IMG/VR virus record: IMGVR_UViG_2663763227_000011
DNA: 12,597 bases
Strand: one strand, 5' to 3'
From: a virus
Lineage: Duplodnaviria > Heunggongvirae > Uroviricota > Caudoviricetes
In this document: positions 1-12,597 of the stretch, one piece after another
How positions within the stretch are numbered: the first letter of the stretch is position 1
Layout: each line of letters opens with the position of its first letter
Translations under genes and position numbers: made by a program
Notes under the pieces: model-generated
The model's database searches: none
What the model saw: only the letters and a program-made list of their open reading frames with translations
Told to the model about the DNA's origin: nothing

Positions 1-1461
1 ATGAAAAAATTACTGCGTCTTTTTTTCCCGCTCTCGCTGCGGGTACGTTTTCTGTTAGCAACGGCAGCAGTAGTATTGGTGCTTTCGCTTGCCTACGGAA
101 TGGTTGCGCTGATCGGTTATAGCGTCAGTTTCGATAAAACCACGTTTCGGCTGTTACGTGGCGAGAGCAATCTGTTCTATACCCTTGCGAAGTGGGAAAA
201 CAATAAGTTGCATGTCGAGTTACCCGAAAATATCGACAAGCAAAGCCCCACCATGACGCTAATTTATGATGAGAACGGGCAGCTTTTATGGGCGCAACGT
301 GACGTGCCCTGGCTGATGAAGATGATCCAGCCTGACTGGCTGAAATCGAATGGTTTTCATGAAATTGAAGCGGATGTTAACGATACCAGCCTCTTGCTGA
401 GTGGAGATCATTCGATACAGCAACAGTTGCAGGAAGTGCGGGAAGATGATGACGACGCGGAGATGACCCACTCGGTAGCGGTAAACGTCTACCCGGCAAC
501 ATCGCGGATGCCAAAGTTAACCATTGTGGTGGTGGATACCATTCCGGTGGAGCTAAAAAGTTCCTATATGGTCTGGAGCTGGTTTATCTATGTGCTCTCA
601 GCCAATCTGCTGTTAGTGATCCCGCTGCTGTGGGTCGCCGCCTGGTGGAGTTTACGCCCCATCGAAGCCCTGGCAAAAGAAGTCCGCGAACTGGAAGAAC
701 ATAACCGCGAATTGCTCAATCCAGCCACAACGCGAGAACTGACCAGTCTGGTACGAAACCTGAACCGATTGTTAAAAAGTGAACGCGAACGTTACGACAA
801 ATATCGTACAACGCTCACCGACCTGACCCATAGTCTGAAAACGCCACTGGCGGTGCTGCAAAGTACGCTGCGTTCTCTGCGTAGTGAGAAGATGAGCGTC
901 AGTGATGCTGAGCCGGTAATGCTGGAGCAAATCAGCCGCATTTCACAGCAAATTGGCTACTACCTGCATCGTGCCAGTATGCGCGGCGGGACATTGCTTA
1001 GCCGCGAGCTGCATCCGGTCGCCCCACTGTTGGACAATCTCACCTCGGCGCTGAACAAAGTGTATCAACGCAAAGGGGTCAATATCTCTCTCGATATTTC
1101 GCCAGAGATCAGCTTTGTTGGTGAGCAGAACGATTTTGTCGAGGTGATGGGCAATGTGCTGGATAATGCCTGTAAATATTGCCTCGAGTTTGTCGAAATT
1201 TCTGCAAGGCAAACCGACGAGCATCTCTATATTGTGGTCGAGGATGATGGCCCCGGTATTCCATTAAGCAAGCGAGAGGTCATTTTCGACCGTGGTCAAC
1301 GGGTTGATACTTTACGCCCTGGGCAAGGTGTAGGGCTGGCGGTAGCCCGCGAAATCACCGAGCAATATGAGGGTAAAATCGTCGCCGGAGAGAGCATGCT
1401 GGGCGGTGCGCGGATGGAGGTGATTTTTGGTCGCCAGCATTCTGCGCCGAAAGATGAATAA
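1..1461 (+). CDS. phoQ: Sensor histidine kinase PhoQ (PhoP/PhoQ two-component system), full length 486 aa
   Basis: Translation matches remembered E. coli PhoQ essentially end to end: N-terminal TM helix, acidic periplasmic patch EDDDDAEM, second TM, HAMP, His-phosphotransfer box ([11 protein letters not shown]) and ATPase G-boxes (DDGPGI, GQGVGL). ATG start at 1, TAA stop at 1459-1461. Confidence 0.97.
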
Positions 1462-3095: not shown

Positions 3096-3509
3096 TCAGA
3101 TGGTTTTCAGTATGCGATCGACGTCGCCTTCATCGCCCTGGTTTCTGCCGTCGTATGCCATGCCGGGTGATACGGCTTTCGGGCTGTGCATGTCCATAAA
3201 GTTTTCAAAGGCTGCGGTAAGCTCCGGCGCAACCTTTGGGCGCTCCTGCTCTATGGTCATGTTCAGGATTTCACGAGCATTATCGACGCTAATACATGGC
3301 ACGTTTGCCATTGCACGTAACAGCGGCTGATAGTCGTTATGTTCATGAAGCGCCATAATCGCATCAGCGCGCGGCTTGTCCTGCTCTTCCAGTTTGTTGA
3401 GTTGATATACGGCCTCGTAGGTTGATAAACCTCTGTCAGCCATTGCCCGCGCTTCGGCTTTAAATTTACTCGCCAGCGGTAGCGTCATGACGCTTTCATT
3501 CGTTGCCAT
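3096..3509 (-). CDS. Hypothetical protein, 137 aa, last gene of the capsid operon
   Basis: ATG at 3509 with AGGGGGA Shine-Dalgarno 4 nt upstream, immediately after the decoration-gene stop (translationally coupled). No recognisable family. Confidence 0.55.
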   Translation of the reverse strand: MATNESVMTLPLASKFKAEARAMADRGLSTYEAVYQLNKLEEQDKPRADAIMALHEHNDYQPLLRAMANVPCISVDNAREILNMTIEQERPKVAPELTAAFENFMDMHSPKAVSPGMAYDGRNQGDEGDVDRILKTI

Positions 3510-3521
3510 CGTTCCCCCTGC

Positions 3522-3857
3522 TTATCGGGCCAGCGGCTGAACGGATACGCCAGAACCCGCAAAGGCGGCGCATTTTTTCGCATCGGTGTCGACGCTCTCA
3601 GGCCAGTTAACGGCGGCAATATTGAAAATCCCCGTCTTGTAACACTGTGCTGATTTCTGCTTTGACGTGTCCACAGGGTACGAGGTCAGATAAACAGCCT
3701 TGCCAGATTCCTGACCATCCCACGGCTTAAACTCGCCATTGTCTGCCAGCATCAGCGGGGTAAATTCCTGAATAACGCCAGCATCAGCGGCAAAATGTAC
3801 CAGCGTCGTGGCGACCTGCTGACTGCCTGCAAATAACTCAATGTATGGAGTGTCCAT
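3522..3857 (-). CDS. Head decoration protein, lambda gpD-like, 111 aa
   Basis: TPLMLADNGEFKPWDG and YKTGIFNIAAVNWPESVDTDAKKCAAFAGS parallel remembered lambda gpD segments ([47 protein letters not shown]). GGGGGGA Shine-Dalgarno upstream of ATG 3857. Confidence 0.8.
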   Translation of the reverse strand: MDTPYIELFAGSQQVATTLVHFAADAGVIQEFTPLMLADNGEFKPWDGQESGKAVYLTSYPVDTSKQKSAQCYKTGIFNIAAVNWPESVDTDAKKCAAFAGSGVSVQPLAR

Positions 3858-3869
3858 AGAATCCCCCCG

Positions 3870-4925
3870 TTAACCAATTTTGACGGTAACAAATTTGCGA
3901 ATATCTGCCGGTACCGGCTGCGGTGCACTGTGTGTCTGCACGTACTCAATCGCCGGATCGCCGTCCTCAATCCAGTTTTTCGGGTAAAACATGTTTTGTG
4001 TTGCGCCCGTTCTTACCGCTTCCTGATCCATTATCGCACCATAGGCCACCAGCCCTTTATTGTTGGTGTTACCTAGGACCAGCAAATCAGGCTCAAGGAA
4101 ATATTTTTCGGTACCATCGCTGTCAGTGTATTTGCCGGAATAGACGATAAGGGCCAGATCACCAAGATAGCCTTTAAAGCTCACCACTTCGCCCAGGTTT
4201 TTACAGGCCAGTTCGGCGGCGGATTCTGAACCACGGGAAAGATCGTACAGCTCACGGAATTTTTTAAAGCTGCGTAACGTTCGCCATACCTCAGCGCCCA
4301 TAATCATGACGTTTGCGGGGCAACCAGCCTGATCGGCGTATAGTTCGATATCATAGATTGGATCGTGGGTTTCTTTGTCCTGCTCTGACCATTTTTTCCC
4401 GTCGGCCTGCTCTATGATGTTTTTTTCCGGTATCTTCCAGTCGATTTCATAGCGCTCTATGCCTTCGCCCTCAATGATGTTTTTTCCGGTCGTTACCGCA
4501 TTTACCGCCAGCCATTCCACGCGCGCTTTTATGGCGTTTATCTGGCGGCGCATATTGCCAGTAATCAGGCGCATACGGCGATAGGTAGGGTCGTTAAGCT
4601 GTGCCGGATCTTCTCCAGCCATGCGCATGATGGTTTTCGTTGGATCGATTTCGTGCTTTGGCTTCATGTAGCCAGGTTTAATCGTGCTGGTTTCGTACCC
4701 TTTATCGCGCTGAACCTGGCTACCCACCATAGGCGAACAAAACGCCGACATGGTGACTTCTTCAATGTCCAGGGTATCCAGCATGATGTTTTGCGTGCTG
4801 AATGTCGCCACGTTCGGGAAAAACAGCGTAGTAAACAGAGGGCTGAATTTAAAATCCGCAATATCCCCGCGATTCAGGTACATGAAAAGCTGGTTAGTGT
4901 TAAGTGCCGTTGCTTTGCCTGCCAT
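3870..4925 (-). CDS. Major capsid protein, lambda gpE family, 351 aa
   Basis: Several blocks match remembered lambda gpE: KFSPLFTTLFF, PGYMKPKHEIDP, DPTYRRMRLITGNMRR, FKGYLGDLALIVYSGKY...LVLGNTNNKGLVAYGAIMD, YPKNWIEDGDPAIEY. The ATG overlaps the stop of the upstream 68-aa ORF (TAATG). Confidence 0.85.
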   Translation of the reverse strand: MAGKATALNTNQLFMYLNRGDIADFKFSPLFTTLFFPNVATFSTQNIMLDTLDIEEVTMSAFCSPMVGSQVQRDKGYETSTIKPGYMKPKHEIDPTKTIMRMAGEDPAQLNDPTYRRMRLITGNMRRQINAIKARVEWLAVNAVTTGKNIIEGEGIERYEIDWKIPEKNIIEQADGKKWSEQDKETHDPIYDIELYADQAGCPANVMIMGAEVWRTLRSFKKFRELYDLSRGSESAAELACKNLGEVVSFKGYLGDLALIVYSGKYTDSDGTEKYFLEPDLLVLGNTNNKGLVAYGAIMDQEAVRTGATQNMFYPKNWIEDGDPAIEYVQTHSAPQPVPADIRKFVTVKIG

Positions 4926-5131
4926 TATTCACCCCCATAATTTTTATGCATCCCAAGCGCCGCAAGTAAATAAGAGCGTACAAGTGAACCTATCGACGGC
5001 TCCGGCGTCATCAGCGGATCCAGTCCAGCCGCCACGCCAGCCTCATAGTTTTTTTTGTGGCGCTGCTTGAGCACCTCCACGATTTCGGGGCTTATGTACA
5101 CCGAAACACCGCCTTTTTTCTCTTCAGCCAT
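4925..5131 (-). CDS. Hypothetical small protein, 68 aa, first gene of the capsid operon; N-terminus resembles a ribbon-helix-helix fold
   Basis: ATG at 5131 with GAGGAA Shine-Dalgarno. N-terminus KGGVSVYISPEIVEVLKQ has the beta-strand then helix pattern of RHH regulators (tentative). Stop overlaps the capsid start. Confidence 0.5.
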   Translation of the reverse strand: MAEEKKGGVSVYISPEIVEVLKQRHKKNYEAGVAAGLDPLMTPEPSIGSLVRSYLLAALGMHKNYGGE

Positions 5132-5166
5132 AGTAAGAAATTCCTCTTCGACTTAAAAAATCATAA

Positions 5167-5215
5167 CTGGATGTTCATCCAGCTCTGATTATAATCAGGA
5201 TTGCGTTTTGTGCAA
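5167..5215 (-). promoter_or_regulatory. Near-consensus sigma70 promoter for the capsid operon with two adjacent CTG...CAG palindromes
   Basis: On the - strand: -35 TTGCAC (5215-5210), 16-nt spacer, -10 TATAAT (5193-5188). The -10 lies inside the perfect 14-bp palindrome CTGATTATAATCAG (5185-5198); the perfect 16-bp palindrome CTGGATGttCATCCAG (5167-5182) covers roughly +1 to +16. Confidence 0.5.
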
Positions 5216-5296
5216 TGATATTGAGTTGTGTTGCAAATTATGAAATGATGATCCCGCTCATGTGTGTCAGTGCACCAAAAAGCCTCATATGCAAAA

Positions 5297-5333
5297 GCCC
5301 GATAAGCCACCTCTGACCTTATCGGGCTTTTTT
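5297..5333. terminator. Strong hairpin terminator between the replication and capsid operons, probably bidirectional
   Basis: Perfect 10-bp stem GCCCGATAAG / CTTATCGGGC with an 11-nt loop, followed by T6 on the + strand and preceded by A4 (U4 on the - strand). Confidence 0.5.
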
Positions 5334-5507
5334 ATCTGCCTGCAAAGATGTCGAACGAAAATTAACCACAACCATCATCTTTTTTGCATCAAAACAATTA
5401 AAAACAATAAATTACGCTCATGATGATGATGACGATAAAATCACAAAAATGCGCTTTTTTCCGCGCTTCCCGCCCCGTGTTCAGGCCCACCCCGCCAGGA
5501 GGACCCG

Positions 5508-5530
5508 TAAAAAAGCCGGATTGCTCCGGC
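5508..5530 (-). terminator. Rho-independent terminator after SSB
   Basis: On the - strand: hairpin GCCGGA-GCAA-TCCGGC (5515-5530) followed by a U-rich run (5508-5514), 17 nt after the SSB stop. Almost identical in sequence to the terminator at 3067-3089. Confidence 0.65.
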
Positions 5531-5546
5531 TTCTGTCTCTCGTCGC

Positions 5547-5969
5547 TTAAAACGGTATGTTATCCCCGTACGGATCATCATTCCCCGCCTGTTGTTTTGC
5601 CCTGTTCAGCGCGTCAGTAGCCTGGCCCTGTTGACCTTTTTTGCCGCCCAGTCGCGCCGTTCGCGCACTGATTACACTGTCTGCGATAACCTGCCAGCCC
5701 TGCCGCGTTTCTCCGTTCTGCCCAGTCCACTGGCTGATCTGCATGTTACCCGCCACGCTCAGGAGTTCACCCTTGCGGTGCCTTTCCAGTGCTTCGGCCT
5801 GTCTGCCAAATGCCAGGACGGATAACCACATCGTCGCCGTTCCGTCATCTGCCTGGCTGCACGGAAGGGGGACCGCCATACGCGCCAGCGTCATCGGTGT
5901 GCCCTTGCTGGTCTGTTTTACCTGCGGGTCGTCCACCAGCCGCCCGTAAGCTGCTATCTGTGCTGTCAT
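5547..5969 (-). CDS. ssb: Single-stranded DNA-binding protein (SSB), 140 aa
   Basis: OB-fold SSB pattern (GRLVDDP...WLSVLAFGRQAE...KGELLSVAG...WTGQNGETRQ) followed by a Gly/Gln-rich linker and a C-terminal acidic ...DDPYGDNIPF tail resembling the E. coli SSB DDDIPF tip. GGAGAGG Shine-Dalgarno; ATG overlaps the upstream TGA (ATGA). Confidence 0.85.
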   Translation of the reverse strand: MTAQIAAYGRLVDDPQVKQTSKGTPMTLARMAVPLPCSQADDGTATMWLSVLAFGRQAEALERHRKGELLSVAGNMQISQWTGQNGETRQGWQVIADSVISARTARLGGKKGQQGQATDALNRAKQQAGNDDPYGDNIPF

Positions 5970-6532: not shown

Positions 6533-8287
6533 TTATAAAAACGCGTCGCACTCGTCTGTTGTTATTGCGTTAGTCTGCGTTACCCCCTTAACTTTCCGCG
6601 TAATATATTCATGTCCGTAAACTTTTGCGGCAGGCTTCATAGCCTTTCCAAAGTCATTTACGTTTAGCGGTTTGCTCCTGCCTGCGTATGCCATAAACGC
6701 CAGATAGACGCGGTAAAGGCTGTTCCTGGTCGTGTACTTCACTGAATCGCCACCGCCCCCCATCATCAGGCCGCGCGCTTCCTCCAGAAAATTCAGGAAC
6801 TGGCAAAACTCAATAACCGGATCCGTCTGTTGCTTTATTGCCAGTGCTTCATCACCGTCACGCTGTTCCAGTAGTAAAGCCCGTGCCTTCTCAGGGTCGG
6901 TAAAGTTCGCCAGCAATCGGCGGATAATGACAGGGATTTCAGCCGCGATCTTTTCCGGTAGCTCCCTGTCTTTTTCGGCCTCACTGACGATATTGTCGAA
7001 ACGGAAAATCACGCGACGACGTGCCACACCTCCGGCCCGTTCGGTGAATATCATCGGGTTATTGTTGGTCGCCAGCACCACCGCCCTGATTACAGCCGTG
7101 AAACGCTTTTCGTATTTCGGGTTAATTTCCACGGGGTCACCGCCCGTGATTTTCTTGATGCCCGTTCCTTCGCCTGTATATTTCGGCTGGTCAGCCAGGA
7201 CGATAAGACGACTCCCGACAACCTGCGCACGTCCACCAGCATCATCAAGCGATGTCATTTCAGCGCTTACCGTGTTCTGTTTCCCTGCCAGAAGGCTGGC
7301 TATGTGCGTGAATGTACTTTTACCGCTCCCGCCGTCTCCGGTGGCCTCAATAAACATCTGCCAGTCGTACCGGTTCGCCATAATCATGTACAGCGCGGCA
7401 CATATACGCATCATCTTGCGCGGGTCTTTTCCGGCTGCGTGCTCAAGCCATTTATGAAAGTTTGGCGCGTTATCGCGGATGTTCTCCCCTGGTGCTGGTG
7501 GCGTGTACTCAATGCCGTTGTGCGTGGTGATCCAGTTCTCCGGCGTGTGCGGGGAAAATCCCCCCGTTTTCAGGTCAAGCGCACCATTGGCGAACGGCAG
7601 CAAATCGCCGGACGGCTCGCCCATTGGTTCGGCAATAACTTTTAACGCTTCCACGGCGTTATTGATTACGCGCTTGCTGAAAGTGGCCCTGTGCTCTGAA
7701 TAGATCGCCACCATTTCGCGGCTAAGTTCCATTGTGCTGACCGGACACCATACCCCGCCGCGCCATACGTGAACGATTTCACTTTCAGGATGTACGCAAA
7801 CGCCATCAAAGCGATCGGCAAGCAGCTGCGCGCGCTCACTGTCCGCCATCTGCGAAAGTTGCGCCTTTTGCTTTACCGGAAGCTCAATGACCAGACCATC
7901 AGAAAGATTCTGGCGCTCACGGGCCAGATATTCGCGCCAGTTCTCCACCTTCTGACCGTGCATACCATCAGGGTAAAAATTTGCATCCTGTACGCCTGCC
8001 GCCGCCAGCTTCTGGCCAATCGCCTTTATCATTACTGGCGCAAGATATCCGGCCCTGAATATGCGCACGGATTTTCTGCCTTCCGGCACAATTTGCAGCT
8101 TATCCAGTTCTGATAACTGCTGCTCCCCAAGCCACACAGGAGGCTCATTATCTCCGGCCATACGCGCATCATGTTCCTGCCATTGTTTCGCGTGTGCCCA
8201 GGCATCACTACCCGCAAAAATAATGACTTCTGTTCCTTTGTGTTTTATGCCGCGTGACTGCTGTTTTACGTTCGGTGCCAGTTTCAT
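6533..8287 (-). CDS. Primase / replication initiator with SF3-type P-loop NTPase domain (P4-family primase-helicase; Pri-Rep-like), 584 aa
   Basis: Walker A motif GDGGSGKST and Walker B-like RLIVLAD in the C-terminal half, a long N-terminal primase-like region, adjacent iteron origin. ATG overlaps the upstream stop (ATGA). Confidence 0.9.
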   Translation of the reverse strand: MKLAPNVKQQSRGIKHKGTEVIIFAGSDAWAHAKQWQEHDARMAGDNEPPVWLGEQQLSELDKLQIVPEGRKSVRIFRAGYLAPVMIKAIGQKLAAAGVQDANFYPDGMHGQKVENWREYLARERQNLSDGLVIELPVKQKAQLSQMADSERAQLLADRFDGVCVHPESEIVHVWRGGVWCPVSTMELSREMVAIYSEHRATFSKRVINNAVEALKVIAEPMGEPSGDLLPFANGALDLKTGGFSPHTPENWITTHNGIEYTPPAPGENIRDNAPNFHKWLEHAAGKDPRKMMRICAALYMIMANRYDWQMFIEATGDGGSGKSTFTHIASLLAGKQNTVSAEMTSLDDAGGRAQVVGSRLIVLADQPKYTGEGTGIKKITGGDPVEINPKYEKRFTAVIRAVVLATNNNPMIFTERAGGVARRRVIFRFDNIVSEAEKDRELPEKIAAEIPVIIRRLLANFTDPEKARALLLEQRDGDEALAIKQQTDPVIEFCQFLNFLEEARGLMMGGGGDSVKYTTRNSLYRVYLAFMAYAGRSKPLNVNDFGKAMKPAAKVYGHEYITRKVKGVTQTNAITTDECDAFL

Positions 8288-9258: not shown

Positions 9259-9478
9259 GTACCCCTCCGCATTTTTTTTCGTTAGAAATAAGCGTTCTTC
9301 TTTCCTGTTCATCGCTCAGGAATACGCAGACCTCACCGCTAAGGCGTTTAAGTAAGCCGATGATTGCCCCTGATTCGCTGTCGGTCATCATGCTAGGGTA
9401 ATCCTCTGCCAGTGCGCAAATAACTTCGATTTGGTGGGCGCGTTCTGCTGCCTGTTGTAGTGTGATTTCCTGGCTCAT
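9248..9478 (-). CDS. Hypothetical protein, 76 aa
   Basis: ATG at 9478 overlaps the TGA of the upstream 66-aa ORF (ATGA); its 3' end contains the Shine-Dalgarno and start of the next gene. Confidence 0.5.
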   Translation of the reverse strand: MSQEITLQQAAERAHQIEVICALAEDYPSMMTDSESGAIIGLLKRLSGEVCVFLSDEQERRTLISNEKKCGGVHVQ

Positions 9479-9675
9479 AAGCCTACCCCCTGACGAATAC
9501 GGGCAGCAAATACCATCACGCAGCCAGCCGGAGATTGCTGGCGTGCTTCCTGTTCGCTGGTGGCCTCAATGGTAATCACGCGCGGTTGTGCCGTGCTCAG
9601 GGCGATAAAACGCCAGATGTATTTATTCAGGTTGTGCGAGTCCCGCCCTTTCGGGTGTGTGGTATGATTTCTCAT
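9475..9675 (-). CDS. Hypothetical small protein, 66 aa, first gene of the replication operon; tentatively Icd-like
   Basis: ATG at 9675 with GAGGT Shine-Dalgarno 4 nt upstream. This is the in-frame tail of the 428-aa ORF in the track, here treated as an independent gene. The YIWRFIAL motif reminds me of proteins annotated as host cell division inhibitor Icd-like in P4-like prophages (memory only). Confidence 0.5.
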   Translation of the reverse strand: MRNHTTHPKGRDSHNLNKYIWRFIALSTAQPRVITIEATSEQEARQQSPAGCVMVFAARIRQGVGL

Positions 9676-9771
9676 AGCTACCTCGATACTGTTGCTATCG
9701 TTGGTGGTTAGAAGCCCCGTTACTGCTCCTACAGTGCGGGGTTTCGTCGTTTCTGTGCCTTTCATCAATAA

Positions 9772-9854
9772 GGTGTAAGACACAATGTAAAACAATGGTG
9801 TCTTACACGTCAACCCTTCAAAATATTTTTTTTTCGTGTATATTGTCTTACACC
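9772..9854. promoter_or_regulatory. Divergent back-to-back promoters with three copies of an 11-bp operator half-site GTGTAAGACAC
   Basis: Perfect inverted repeat GTGTAAGACAC (9773-9783) / GTGTCTTACAC (9798-9808) with a 14-bp spacer, plus a third half-site TGTCTTACACC (9844-9854). Leftward promoter: -35 TTGACG (rc of 9809-9814) and -10 TACATT, with the inverted repeat spanning its core. Rightward promoter: -35 TTCAAA (9817-9822), 16-nt spacer, -10 TATATT (9839-9844), overlapped by the third half-site. Confidence 0.55.
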
Positions 9855-9874
9855 AAAAACATGAGGGGTTAAAC

Positions 9875-10054
9875 ATGGCAACGGGTCCAAAGAATGCAAA
9901 ATCACAATCTGTAACTGCACGTATTGCCCATGAAATTATTGAAGGCATGGAGAACGTGAAAGAAGAAGGCGAAAGCACGGGACAGTTTATAAACGCAGCC
10001 ATGCGCGGCGAAATCAAACGCCGCCAGCGCCGCAAGGCCAAAGAGCAGGAGTAA
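9875..10054 (+). CDS. Small ribbon-helix-helix-like DNA-binding protein, 59 aa (candidate repressor of the divergent promoters)
   Basis: ATG 9875 with GAGGGG Shine-Dalgarno 6 nt upstream. SVTARIAHEIIEGMENVKEEGESTGQFINAAMRGEIKRRQ fits an RHH beta-strand plus two helices; good E. coli codon usage. Opposite in orientation to every other island gene. The ORF track's 9836 GTG start is rejected. Confidence 0.6.
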   Translation: MATGPKNAKSQSVTARIAHEIIEGMENVKEEGESTGQFINAAMRGEIKRRQRRKAKEQE

Positions 10055-10111
10055 CCATCACCAGCGCCGTGGTGTGAGTAACTACGGCGCATTGCTATGC
10101 AGGACAACACA

Positions 10112-10285
10112 ATGACCGATAAAGAATTGACCAAAACATTATCACCGGCACGGAAAAGACGGCGCAGAAAGATAGAGCATGAATCAGAAAGATTCGCGCC
10201 ATGTGCTTTTGCCCTTGAGCAATTCCTTAAAGAGTACAGGGAAAAGCGCTCATTGCAGGTATGGCAACGAACTGAACCAGACTGA
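10112..10285 (+). CDS. Small, highly basic protein, 57 aa, co-transcribed with the RHH gene
   Basis: ATG 10112 with AGGA 7 nt upstream (the ORF track starts at 10097). Contains RKRRRRK; rare codons suggest horizontal origin; followed by + strand terminators. No family recognised. Confidence 0.45.
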   Translation: MTDKELTKTLSPARKRRRRKIEHESERFAPCAFALEQFLKEYREKRSLQVWQRTEPD

Positions 10286-10364
10286 TTGCATTGCCCACCA
10301 GCCGCAAATGTGGCATTGTTGGCAATGCTCATGCGTTGGGGATAACGTGTAGCTTGTGTCGAGG

Positions 10365-10393
10365 GGCCACCGTAGCGGGTGGCCTTTGTTTTG
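10365..10393 (+). terminator. Rho-independent terminator of the + strand cassette
   Basis: GGCCACC-gtagcg-GGTGGCC hairpin followed by TTTGTTTTG. A second + strand hairpin with a GCAA loop and T-run at 10488-10520 may act as a backup. Confidence 0.55.
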
Positions 10394-10761
10394 CCCGTTA
10401 TTCGGCAATTGTGGCGCTTCTCCACATGGTTGATATAATCCCACTGCTCAGATTCATTTTTTGCGCAGTAGGTTAATTGTTCACAAAGGCGCTCCGGCAA
10501 CGGGGCGCTTTTTGTTTTTATTAGTTTGTAGAAACCTGACTCAGAGATAATGCTCATATTCTGATTGCCGTCAGGGGTGTAAGTTAAATTTACTCCCTTT
10601 TTATCATCAAACATCTGCAACGCTCTGGCGTTAACAATATTGGTTTCACTCCCGCCAGTAAGGCCGGAAATAACCGGAATAATTTCGGCAAAATTTTGCA
10701 GATTCTGTTTTTCAGGACGAACGAAGCCCCGCCCTTGTTCGGGAGAATATCCAGTATTCAT
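10380..10761 (-). pseudogene. KilA-N/Bro-N-like (antirepressor-like) N-terminal coding region with no in-frame stop; probably a truncated or disrupted gene
   Basis: The first ~125 aa are protein-like and contain TYTPDGNQNMSIISESGFYKLI, resembling the Bro-N/KilA-N core (P22 Ant-like SVINESGLYSLI, from memory). Beyond about 10380 the same frame continues for ~230 codons of Cys/Ser/Arg/Trp-rich junk, antisense to the + strand genes, until it joins the 66-aa ORF. The lower coordinate is approximate. Confidence 0.4.
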
Positions 10762-10813: not shown

Positions 10814-11002
10814 TTAGTGAACTGCCTCGCAGCTGTCCTTCCATGCCAGAACTTCGGATAAAGACCAGCCAACGGAACGACCGCCCAGCTTACGCCGTGA
10901 TGGGAATTGTCCGGCTTTTTCCAGGCGGTACCGACATGAGCGGCTCAGGCCTGTAAGTTGCTGACATTCTTTTTCACGTATAAAGCGATCTGTGCTTAAC
11001 AC
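10814..11002 (-). CDS. alpA: AlpA-family phage regulatory protein (Xis-like winged-helix activator), 62 aa
   Basis: LTGLSRSCRYRLEKAGQFPSRRKLGGRSVGWSLSEVLAW matches the AlpA/Vis family signature (TG-SR-T-Y...FP...LG-RSVGW...EV--W). GTG start at 11002 with GGGGGA Shine-Dalgarno; TAA stop at 10814-10816. Confidence 0.85.
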   Translation of the reverse strand: MLSTDRFIREKECQQLTGLSRSCRYRLEKAGQFPSRRKLGGRSVGWSLSEVLAWKDSCEAVH

Positions 11003-11280
11003 AATTCCCCCTTTGTTGTTTCTTAAAGAGTCATTGGGTGGATTATTGGGTTGGGTTGTGTCGGATTGTGTCAGGGTGTTTGTGGAATGGCAAACACTGG
11101 CTGCGGTCGTTTTACAGAAGCAGGGGGAATGAGAATAAAAACTCTTTTAATTCATTATGATGCAAAGGCATAAAATTTTACTTTTACGCCTTTTTTACAT
11201 ATTTTTAAGAGTGATTCGCCAGTGTATAAAAAAACAGTACACCTATAAAAATCAAATGGTTATTACGATGGCTGATTTTT

Positions 11281-11340
11281 AACCCGTTGTTCCATTTTGT
11301 TCCTTGTTGTTCGTCGTTGTGTCTCGTTGTTTCACGTTGT
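11281..11340. repeat. Six tandem 10-bp-phased repeats (consensus about TCnTCGTTGT) just downstream of the integrase stop
   Basis: aacccgttgt / tccattttgt / tccttgttgt / tcgtcgttgt / gtctcgttgt / ttcacgttgt: each 10-mer ends in TTGT, giving exact helical phasing. A second GT-rich repeat cluster (GATTGTGTC, GGGTTGTGTC) lies at 11038-11090 in the alpA leader. Confidence 0.6.
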
Positions 11341-11367: not shown

Positions 11368-12597
11368 TTATATTTCTCTGGCTATTGGCAATGTGGTTAC
11401 GTTTTCATGTGTTCCCGCCAGTATCCCTAACCGCTCCGTCCACATATCCAGCGCGTCACGTTTCGCATCCAGATAACGGGAATGGTTATAGACTCGTTGC
11501 ATCCCTGGCATCTGATGACCTGTAAGCTGCTCCACGACGTGAGGATCCACGCCTAAATCGTTCAGCATCGTTGTAAAGGTGCGCCGGATGTCATGCAGTG
11601 ACCAGTGAGGGTGTTTTAGCCTCCTGTGCGCTAATCTGCCGTACTGCGACACGCTTGTTTCCTGTTTCACTTCCCCCAGCAATAAGCCCGTGTGCCTGTT
11701 CTGCTCCACCAGCTGCGTGACGAACGGCAGTATTGCTTCCGGTATGGGCCGGAATATTGCCACCTTCGTTTTGCTGTGTTCTTTCGGCACGGTCCAGAGC
11801 ATTTCGGTAAAATCCCACTCGCTGATCTCCGATAACCTCAGTTCTACCGTCCGGCATCCGAAAACAATCAGGAGGCGGATTAGTGCGACGTAGTAAGGGG
11901 AAAATATTTTTTTGTCCAGTGCCTGCAATAATTCGCCAAGTTCTTTGGTGCTTAAGACACGCTCGCTTATATCCGGTTTTTTCCCAACGTCCGCCACACT
12001 CATATCATCAAGAACGTTGCTGATTGCATAGCGCCGCCTCCGGCAGAACTTAAGCGCCTGTTTGCACGTCTGTAGCAAGAATCCGGCAGTAACAGGCGTT
12101 CGCTTTGCCACCTGGTCAAAACAGGCCAGCCAGTGCCGTAGCTCGCATTTATCCAGCGGCATAGCACCAATGTGCTGTATTACGTGATTATTAAGGCGCT
12201 TTTTCAGGGCGGCATAATCCACGCGGTTTTCCTTTACGTAAGACTCAAGCCAGTAGGTAAGCGCATCGCCAACCGTTACGGGCTTTAACGCTTTCTGTAC
12301 GGTGTAATTCATCTCATGACGTGGATTTTTCCCCTCAGCAAGCCAAGCGCGACACTGTGCCGCTTTTTCCCTGGCAGCTTTCAGACTCAGATCAGGATAA
12401 TTTCCCAGCTTAATCCGTTCCGGTCGTGCTCCCCTTCCCGTTCCGGCCCTGTAGGTGAAATACCAGGTTAAAAGGCCGCTGGTTGAATGCCTGACGCTCA
12501 GGTTTCCACCGTCATTAAGAAAGGCTGTTTTTTGGGCGGGTGTGCCGTTGATTTTCCTTAGCTGTGTATCACTCAGTTTGTTAAGTGCTCTGCGCAT
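11368..12597 (-). CDS. int: Tyrosine-type site-specific integrase, P4/CP4-57 family, 409 aa
   Basis: N-terminus LSDTQLRKINGTP...GGNLSVRHSTSGLLTWYFTYR matches the P4-type integrase arm-binding domain. The C-terminal catalytic region has RTVELRLSEISEWDF, HDIRRTF and the HxxxRxxY-type tail (GHQMPGMQRVYNHSRY). The start codon sits exactly at the window edge, so the true start and the adjacent att site cannot be verified. Confidence 0.9.
   Translation of the reverse strand: MRRALNKLSDTQLRKINGTPAQKTAFLNDGGNLSVRHSTSGLLTWYFTYRAGTGRGARPERIKLGNYPDLSLKAAREKAAQCRAWLAEGKNPRHEMNYTVQKALKPVTVGDALTYWLESYVKENRVDYAALKKRLNNHVIQHIGAMPLDKCELRHWLACFDQVAKRTPVTAGFLLQTCKQALKFCRRRRYAISNVLDDMSVADVGKKPDISERVLSTKELGELLQALDKKIFSPYYVALIRLLIVFGCRTVELRLSEISEWDFTEMLWTVPKEHSKTKVAIFRPIPEAILPFVTQLVEQNRHTGLLLGEVKQETSVSQYGRLAHRRLKHPHWSLHDIRRTFTTMLNDLGVDPHVVEQLTGHQMPGMQRVYNHSRYLDAKRDALDMWTERLGILAGTHENVTTLPIAREI

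Follow-up and report, generated by a model that had tools for sequence, protein, structure and literature searches.

Genomic context and promoter of the capsid operon

The window, i.e. the whole stretch of 12,597 nt that was analysed, begins inside phoQ (partial gene, 1-1461, plus strand) and carries, adjoining this gene, an EcCICFT073-type PICI, a Gram-negative phage satellite of E. coli. All island genes are co-directional and encoded on the minus strand. Genes for an integrase (int, 11368-12597), AlpA (10814-11002), a D5-type primase (6533-8287) and SSB (5547-5969) were assigned by Pfam. The island combines int, alpA and a primase/replication module with co-directional late genes that include lambda E/D-like capsid genes, within ~10-15 kb, and agrees with the published description of this PICI type (PMC6092414, PMC10111431). 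Two open reading frames of the island deserve a comment on their extent. The ORF at 1938-2417 matches PHROG 1561 with residues 67-159 only, and related islands annotate a 93-94-aa gene there; it is probably over-called at its 5' end. The ORF at 9475-10761 (428 aa), the longest in its stretch, has a Cys/Ser/Arg-rich, low-complexity translation from about residue 130 onwards that resembles non-coding read-through, and the real gene is probably much shorter.

The late operon starts with the gene of a 68-aa protein (4925-5131, minus strand; PHROG 3255, function not known). It is followed on the same strand by the genes for the major capsid protein (3870-4925; Phage_cap_E, lambda E-like, homologue of c1499), the head decoration protein (3522-3857; HDPD, lambda D-like, homologue of c1500), a 137-aa scaffold-like protein (3096-3509; PHROG 1999) and a 144-aa protein with an N-terminal HTH (2499-2933). 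The 137-aa protein shows weak similarity to head maturation proteases, in their C-terminal scaffold part; of phrog_53, which stands for head-maturation protease/scaffold fusions, it matches the C-terminal portion (E 2e-9). A scaffold-like protein, without protease or portal, may thus be encoded beside the capsid and decoration genes of the island. The weak terminase small subunit similarity of the 144-aa protein is confined to residues 7-47. At the position of this gene, related islands have a gene annotated as 'terminase small subunit', and it corresponds to the position of Rpp (c1503) in EcCICFT073. The RefSeq gene order is the same as the published EcCICFT073 order (c1499 capsid, c1500 decoration, c1503 Rpp).

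Island DNA with the same gene order and 92-99% identity is found in CFT073-lineage, Nissle and O157 genomes. DNA matching the stretch 4900-5560 is present in 932 of 5426 complete E. coli genomes (~17%), and a single match covers at least 80% of this stretch in 168 of those 932, including CFT073-lineage genomes, Nissle 1917 and ATCC 25922. In O157:H7 genomes, the match comprises only the first two thirds of the stretch (4900-5333), the promoter included; these genomes carry an island of the same type at the identical phoQ-roxA site. For comparison, 108 loci with the small-orf/capsid arrangement were compiled from IMG/VR, NCBI and Logan assemblies. The first 91 of them, E. coli and Salmonella relatives, provide 52 distinct promoter regions. 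Genome-contig scans with the capsid protein and its alignment yielded no confirmed relative. A PerC-family gene is encoded upstream of the promoter in many related islands (L002-L007, L110) and is absent from the window. Downstream of the small-orf, capsid and decoration genes, two Edwardsiella loci (L098, L099) and Lelliottia (L102) have genes for a portal and/or an S49 protease. These islands look more like capsid-forming PICIs, yet they have the promoter architecture in common with the window.

The original prediction had placed a promoter of a satellite island's capsid operon on the minus strand upstream of the 68-aa gene, and its coordinates and strand are correct. The promoter consists of the -35 hexamer TTGCAC (5215-5210), a 16-nt spacer and the -10 hexamer TATAAT (5193-5188). 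Its description as near-consensus is justified for the -10 hexamer, which agrees with the consensus at 6/6 positions, but not for the -35 hexamer, which shares only TTG with TTGACA (3/6). Accordingly, a consensus promoter scan that required at least 4/6 matches per hexamer did not list the late promoter. Among the 52 distinct relatives, TTGC of the -35 hexamer is invariant while its positions 5-6 vary, and TATAAT is unchanged in 51; hexamers and spacing are thus conserved as for a sigma-70 promoter. From the hexamers, transcription is predicted to start at 5180-5184, 5-9 nt downstream of the -10. Upstream of the start codon (ATG, 5131-5129), the conserved AAGAGGAA contains the Shine-Dalgarno sequence GAGG (5143-5146, minus strand). 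In the 52 distinct regions, the conserved promoter block extends from ATTTCATAATTTGCAAC through to the ATG. This block contains two symmetric elements in positions suited to repression, in line with the original prediction; the first covers the -10 and the second the predicted start site.

A bidirectional-looking intrinsic terminator (5286-5338; 21-nt arms, 86% complementary, flanked by an A-run and a T-run) is found between the replication/SSB module and the late-operon promoter and is kept in related islands. On the plus strand, i.e. antisense to the island genes, the T-run is the longer one (6 T). A plus-strand promoter that makes use of the palindromic TATAAT and yields a short RNA ending at this terminator was considered and is unlikely: its -35 matches at 2/6 positions only, and the intervening sequence is unconserved between lineages.

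The 16-mer at the predicted transcription start and its fit to LexA

The element over the predicted start site, CTGGATGTTCATCCAG (5167-5182), has the CTG-N10-CAG spacing of a LexA box with an AT-rich centre and is located at the expected transcription start. It had been described as a perfect 16-bp palindrome but is composed of 7-bp arms around a central TT (positions 8 and 9) that is not self-complementary. The site was scored as heterology index (HI) with a matrix built in the Berg-von Hippel/Lewis manner from 18 published E. coli LexA boxes (PMC3009722, Table 4), i.e. our own 18-site version and not Lewis's original. The candidate LexA (SOS) box AACTGGATGTTCATCCAGCT (5165-5184, with the 16-bp core at 5167-5182) has an HI of 8.09. 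For the 18 known boxes, HI ranges from 0.3 to 9.3 when they are part of the matrix and from 0.6 to 12.6 when each is left out. The score of the window's site is thus within the range of validated boxes and comparable to the leave-one-out values of ruvA (8.5), cho (7.9) and uvrD (7.8), which counts against the earlier view that LexA is unlikely.

That view had been based on G4 and C13, which deviate from the LexA consensus. The ruvA box CTGGATATCTATCCAG, however, has exactly the same arms, the cho box shares G4 and the uvrB box shares C13. The box centre, GAAC, is one base apart from that of the recA box (GAGC). Five CTG-N10-CAG strings including the candidate occur in the window, and the candidate is one of only two sites in it with an HI of at most 8.1. 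No site at or below this value was found in 3 Mb of Markov sequence, and the exact i.i.d. expectation is 0.011-0.039 such sites per 12.6 kb, or 1e-4 to 3e-4 per 100 bp. The box starts 5 nt past the -10 hexamer and covers the predicted +1, a location typical for repressing LexA boxes (PMC8072944). By these measures, the 16-mer on the late promoter scores as a genuine LexA binding site and is a probable LexA box.

A second LexA-like 20-mer, CAGTGTATAAAAAAACAGTA (11220-11239; minus strand TACTGTTTTTTTATACACTG, much like the uvrB box), is found between int and alpA with an HI of 5.66. CAC takes the place of CAG in its right half, and the corresponding sequence of the CFT073-lineage island is TACTGGCTTTTTGTACATTG; this 20-mer is probably not a conserved, functional LexA box.

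A box with an HI of at most 9.2 and at most 130 nt from the ATG is present in 102 of the 108 loci. At the lineage level, it occupies the orthologous position in five of the seven lineages that have the small-orf arrangement. It is absent from two lineages with the same operon, namely E. coli lineage 2 (L091, L100, L101) and Edwardsiella (L098, L099). The consensus in the 52 distinct regions is CTGGAT[G/A][AA/TT][C/A]AT[C/A]CAG, in which the outer CTG and CAG are never altered. All eleven full-length box variants have an HI between 5.2 and 9.2. Box and -10 palindrome are separated by 3 hypervariable nt, which are flanked by invariant blocks. Most loci are 85-99% identical; the E. coli and Salmonella loci are closely related overall, so that conservation within them has limited power.

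Two changes are recurrent, C13 to A (ATCCAG to ATACAG) and G7 to A, and both lower the HI and bring the site nearer to the LexA consensus. More distant islands provide the stronger test. In Lelliottia, whose capsid protein is 59% identical, the box CACTGTTTTTTCATACAGTT (HI 5.8) is found at the same place with changed inner bases and the consensus arms CTGT/ACAG. Such shifts towards the LexA consensus in related islands (ATACAG; CTGTTTTTTCATACAG in Lelliottia) speak against the minor role that the original prediction assigned to LexA. In Pluralibacter and in an enterobacterial assembly (L109), the boxes AACTGGATGTTTGTCCAGTT (HI 7.56) and TGCTGGATGTTTATCCAGTT (HI 4.79) are located 13 bp farther downstream of the -10. 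Among the relatives overall, HI values span 4.8-9.2. G4 and C13, sub-optimal for LexA, are kept in most lineages; this could point to another protein as the object of selection, or to a box that is kept weak on purpose.

Taken together, the finding is best described as the sigma-70 promoter of a late operon for capsid, decoration, scaffold-like and Rpp-like proteins, with the 16-mer as a moderate-affinity LexA (SOS) box. We assign a probability of roughly 0.6 to this reading. LexA is preferred as the reader of the 16-mer mainly because the site holds to or nears the LexA motif among relatives; a private operator should change along with the protein that reads it.

The -10 palindrome, the upstream dyads and the 68-aa protein

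The -10 hexamer is contained in CTGATTATAATCAG (5185-5198), a perfect 14-bp palindrome as originally noted. The 14-bp form is found in the window only and was rejected as the functional unit: in the 52 distinct regions, just the inner 12 bp are invariant, and the outer pair occurs as C-G, A-G, A-T, C-T and A-C without covariation. The inner 12-bp perfect palindrome, TGATTATAATCA (5186-5197), is centred on the -10 and occurs once in the window. E. coli, Salmonella, Pluralibacter and L109 have it in identical form. E. coli lineage 2 has lost the LexA box but keeps the -10 palindrome as TGATTAAAATCA. Lelliottia shows the reverse, as the box is present and the -10 palindrome absent. Since the distance between palindrome and box differs by 13 bp between lineages and either element is found without the other, they are best regarded as independent modules with probably different readers. 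We regard the 12-bp palindrome as a candidate for a second operator, separate from the LexA box.

Two further dyads of the TTGCA-N5-TGCAA type, 30 bp apart, are located upstream on the minus strand. The proximal dyad TTGCACAAAACGCAA (5201-5215) overlaps the -35 and is the most widely conserved motif across lineages. The distal dyad TTTCATAATTTGCAA (5231-5245; 1 mismatch) is centred near -57 and opens the conserved promoter block. The dyads are kept in every lineage with this promoter; Edwardsiella has two good copies, and the arms in L101 extend to 7 bp. They probably bind a further factor. The pattern TGAT-N4-ATCA recalls the FNR core and the TTGCA half-sites recall CytR octamers, which we take to be a likeness only and do not put forward as a claim.

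Other repeats are found in the int-alpA intergenic region, with two sets of iteron-like repeats of 10-bp period upstream of alpA: read on the minus strand, ACAACGNGNN recurs about 5-6 times at 11286-11340 and GACACAAnCC about three times at 11045-11072. Both are candidate AlpA sites or integrase arm-type sites. An ACAAC-type motif common to the repeats upstream of alpA and the late promoter was rejected, as the relevant positions vary among relatives.

The most economical candidate for the binder of the 12-bp palindrome is the operon's own first product, the 68-aa protein, acting as an autoregulator. Its family is narrow and enterobacterial (PHROG 3255) and is always encoded by the first gene of the operon. 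Conserved parts are the N-terminal GVxVYISP-DIV segment and the second helix, xSxGWxVRxxLR. The original prediction had described the N-terminus as RHH-like. A strand-like GVxVYISP followed by two helices is indeed found, but a significant match to an RHH profile is not. The Pfam search with the window's 68-aa protein gave no match, and a single allele (P0006) has sub-threshold Pfam signals, to RHH_1 (E 0.15; 12.5 bits at a cutoff of 20.5) and BrnA (E 0.12). PDB contains no sequence match to the 68-aa protein. AlphaFold monomers consist of two helices with a free N-terminus (pLDDT 71-74), and the top Foldseek match in PDB is TraM with an E-value of 0.84, below threshold. With F TraM, whose sequence was confirmed against PDB 4qpo, hhalign aligned 16 columns (GVSVYISPEIVEVLKQ with KVNLYISNDAYEKINA) at 15% probability. 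A ribbon-helix-helix (RHH) fold of the 68-aa protein is suggested at most.

The stop codon of the 68-aa gene overlaps the capsid start (TAATG). Given this translational coupling of the two genes, the 68-aa protein could just as well have a structural or assembly role. Alleles that share the same operators are only 49-68% identical to that of the window (about 51-54% in Pluralibacter and L109); because the N-terminal GVxVYIS strand is conserved, this is an argument neither for nor against autoregulation. Several database proteins (P0023, P0024, P0025, P0013) correspond to the 68-aa gene after frameshift or fusion; in P0023, a PerC-family N-terminus is joined to the C-terminal half of the 68-aa protein.

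The protein resembles known RHH autoregulators (Arc/Mnt/CopG and the N-terminal domain of TraM) in its GVSVYIS segment (cf. KVNLYIS in TraM) followed by two helices, and in being encoded by the first gene behind a promoter with a short palindrome over the -10. It differs from them by a 13-residue insertion between the helices and by the lack of a significant sequence or fold match.

Alternative readers of the two symmetric elements

The original prediction had preferred an island or helper repressor to LexA, with the 68-aa protein as a possible autoregulator. In the island version, both palindromes would be operators of an island repressor, most likely the 68-aa RHH-like autoregulator, without involvement of LexA. 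The constant first position of the gene, the conserved GVxVYISP terminus and the weak RHH signals are in line with this, as are the G4/C13 arms kept in most lineages. Similarly, Lelliottia, which is without the -10 palindrome, has a small protein with a divergent N-terminus (RSVYIDGD). However, the half-sites TGATTA/TAATCA and CTGGAT/ATCCAG are unrelated, so that one protein is unlikely to read both. The 13-bp shift in spacing between lineages and the occurrence of each element alone also argue against a common reader. Moreover, the drift of the 16-mer goes to the LexA consensus and is not in step with the protein, the motif is found nowhere else in the island, and the RHH assignment stays under every threshold. 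A repressor of the island acting on both elements in place of LexA is thus improbable.

Helper-phage proteins, or another host factor, have to be weighed in the same manner. Bound to the box, to the -10 palindrome or to both, such a factor would let expression follow the lytic cycle of the helper instead of the SOS response. PICI induction in Gram-negatives is helper-dependent, with alpA of EcCIMP1 answering the helper and not mitomycin alone, and neither the TTGCA-N5-TGCAA dyads nor the 12-mer have an assigned binder. A helper-phage origin of the promoter or its operators was rejected, as no DNA similar to the promoter region was found among 50,697 phage records. In addition, a helper or other host factor leaves both the fit to the LexA matrix and the drift towards the LexA consensus as an unexplained coincidence, and we consider it quite improbable as the reader of these elements.

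At the RNA level, the 16-mer might form a 5'-leader hairpin followed by a U-run, i.e. an attenuator or terminator that is read through with the help of an antiterminator (AlpA or a helper-phage factor). A terminator scan does list AGCTGGATGAACATCCAGTT and ATGATTTTTT, folding z-scores range from -1.8 to -3.0, TTTTTT follows directly after the hairpin in Pluralibacter and L109, and the co-directional island genes make read-through control conceivable. In the window, however, the U-run follows the stem only after 4 nt, and transcription is predicted to start within the left arm. Pairing is not restored by compensatory change either: the ATACAG variants (10 loci in four promoter backgrounds: L002, L051, L053, L070) have a broken, uncompensated G4-C13 pair, and Lelliottia retains only the 4 outer pairs (-4.7 kcal/mol, z -1.2). 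The T-run is still kept in lineages without the palindrome, and Rfam gave no match. Control by such a leader structure is very improbable, and the reading of the 16-mer as an intrinsic terminator or attenuator was rejected.

Least credible of all is symmetry without regulatory function, with a -10 palindrome derived from the near-palindromic TATAAT (which alone gives 2/6 palindrome pairs) and a 16-mer that arose by chance or hitch-hikes in a young, little-diverged element (loci mostly 85-99% identical, so that invariance is partly shared ancestry): it is contradicted by the hypervariable 3-nt spacer between two invariant blocks, by the box being kept despite new inner bases or a new position in Pluralibacter and L109 (small protein ~51-54% identical) and in Lelliottia (capsid 59%), and by a chance expectation of ~1e-4 per promoter.

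If the 16-mer is indeed a LexA box, LexA dimers on CTGGATGAACATCCAG (about +1 to +16) would prevent initiation or promoter escape in an undamaged cell. Upon DNA damage, RecA-stimulated self-cleavage of LexA would follow; the same signal induces most lambdoid helper prophages. The cleavage would free the promoter, so that the satellite would switch on its late genes as the helper is induced. An HI in this moderate range is shared with ruvAB and the uvr genes and points to early, leaky derepression. AlpA overexpression has been used to drive reproduction of the related cf-PICI EcCIEDL933, and Rpp interference has been observed on plain lambda infection; for these reasons LexA cannot be the sole control. 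A leaky promoter with several inputs, of which LexA would be one, fits both observations. The 12-bp operator and the dyads would then be the likely carriers of island-specific or helper-specific inputs. A more detailed version is a three-input gate, in which LexA would transmit the SOS signal, the 68-aa RHH-like protein would read the 12-bp operator (copy number/autoregulation) and the dyads would serve an activator (helper/AlpA). As a complete scheme this is tentative, and its chances are appreciable but well short of even.

The closest parallel is operon I of the SaPIs in Staphylococcus aureus, for which LexA control is experimentally established (Ubeda et al. 2007, Mol Microbiol 65:41). In both cases, a late capsid/packaging/interference module of a satellite has its own promoter with a host LexA box, predicted for the island studied here, and the SOS response, which induces the helper prophage, would control morphogenesis genes of the satellite as well. 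The differences are considerable: the SaPI box is of the Firmicutes type and the host belongs to another phylum, whereas the box predicted here is a gammaproteobacterial CTG-N10-CAG. The genes are unrelated, as the operon here encodes a lambda E/D-like capsid and decoration protein and an Rpp-like protein. The promoter in the window additionally carries the -10 palindrome and the upstream dyads, and LexA control is demonstrated in SaPIs but predicted here.

On the side of the host, the E. coli ruvAB SOS box CGCTGGATATCTATCCAGCA has the same CTGGAT...ATCCAG arms in CTG-N10-CAG spacing and a similar score (HI 8.5 leave-one-out vs. 8.1 here), with ATCT instead of GAAC as the central four bases. 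It belongs to a chromosomal repair operon with proven LexA regulation, whereas the box in the window is predicted. LexA-regulated genes of mobile elements include tum of coliphage 186, the colicin operons, rstA of CTXphi, integron intI and P1 of GIL01. In some of these elements a second, element-encoded regulator acts beside LexA, such as RstR in CTXphi and gp7 in GIL01. They share with the island a host LexA box over the promoter of the element (predicted here) but differ from it in kind (phages, plasmids or integrons) and in the genes under control.

For this operon, neither a LexA box nor a promoter analysis was found in the searchable literature on Gram-negative PICIs and cf-PICIs, and the exact promoter motifs do not occur in the searchable literature. 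In that on Gram-negative PICIs, AlpA alone is established, as an activator of early genes, and the timing of late genes is unexplained. The 68-aa protein and the two further conserved DNA motifs are candidates for the missing regulators. A link to LexA is plausible and would be a convergent connection in a satellite family different from the SaPIs. If true, the SaPI logic would have a second, independent example, and the SOS response induced by damage or antibiotics would be tied to satellite packaging and interference, including an Rpp-type protein that hijacks helper packaging. With islands carrying this promoter in O157:H7, Nissle 1917 and CFT073-lineage genomes, the site would be relevant to SOS-driven gene transfer.
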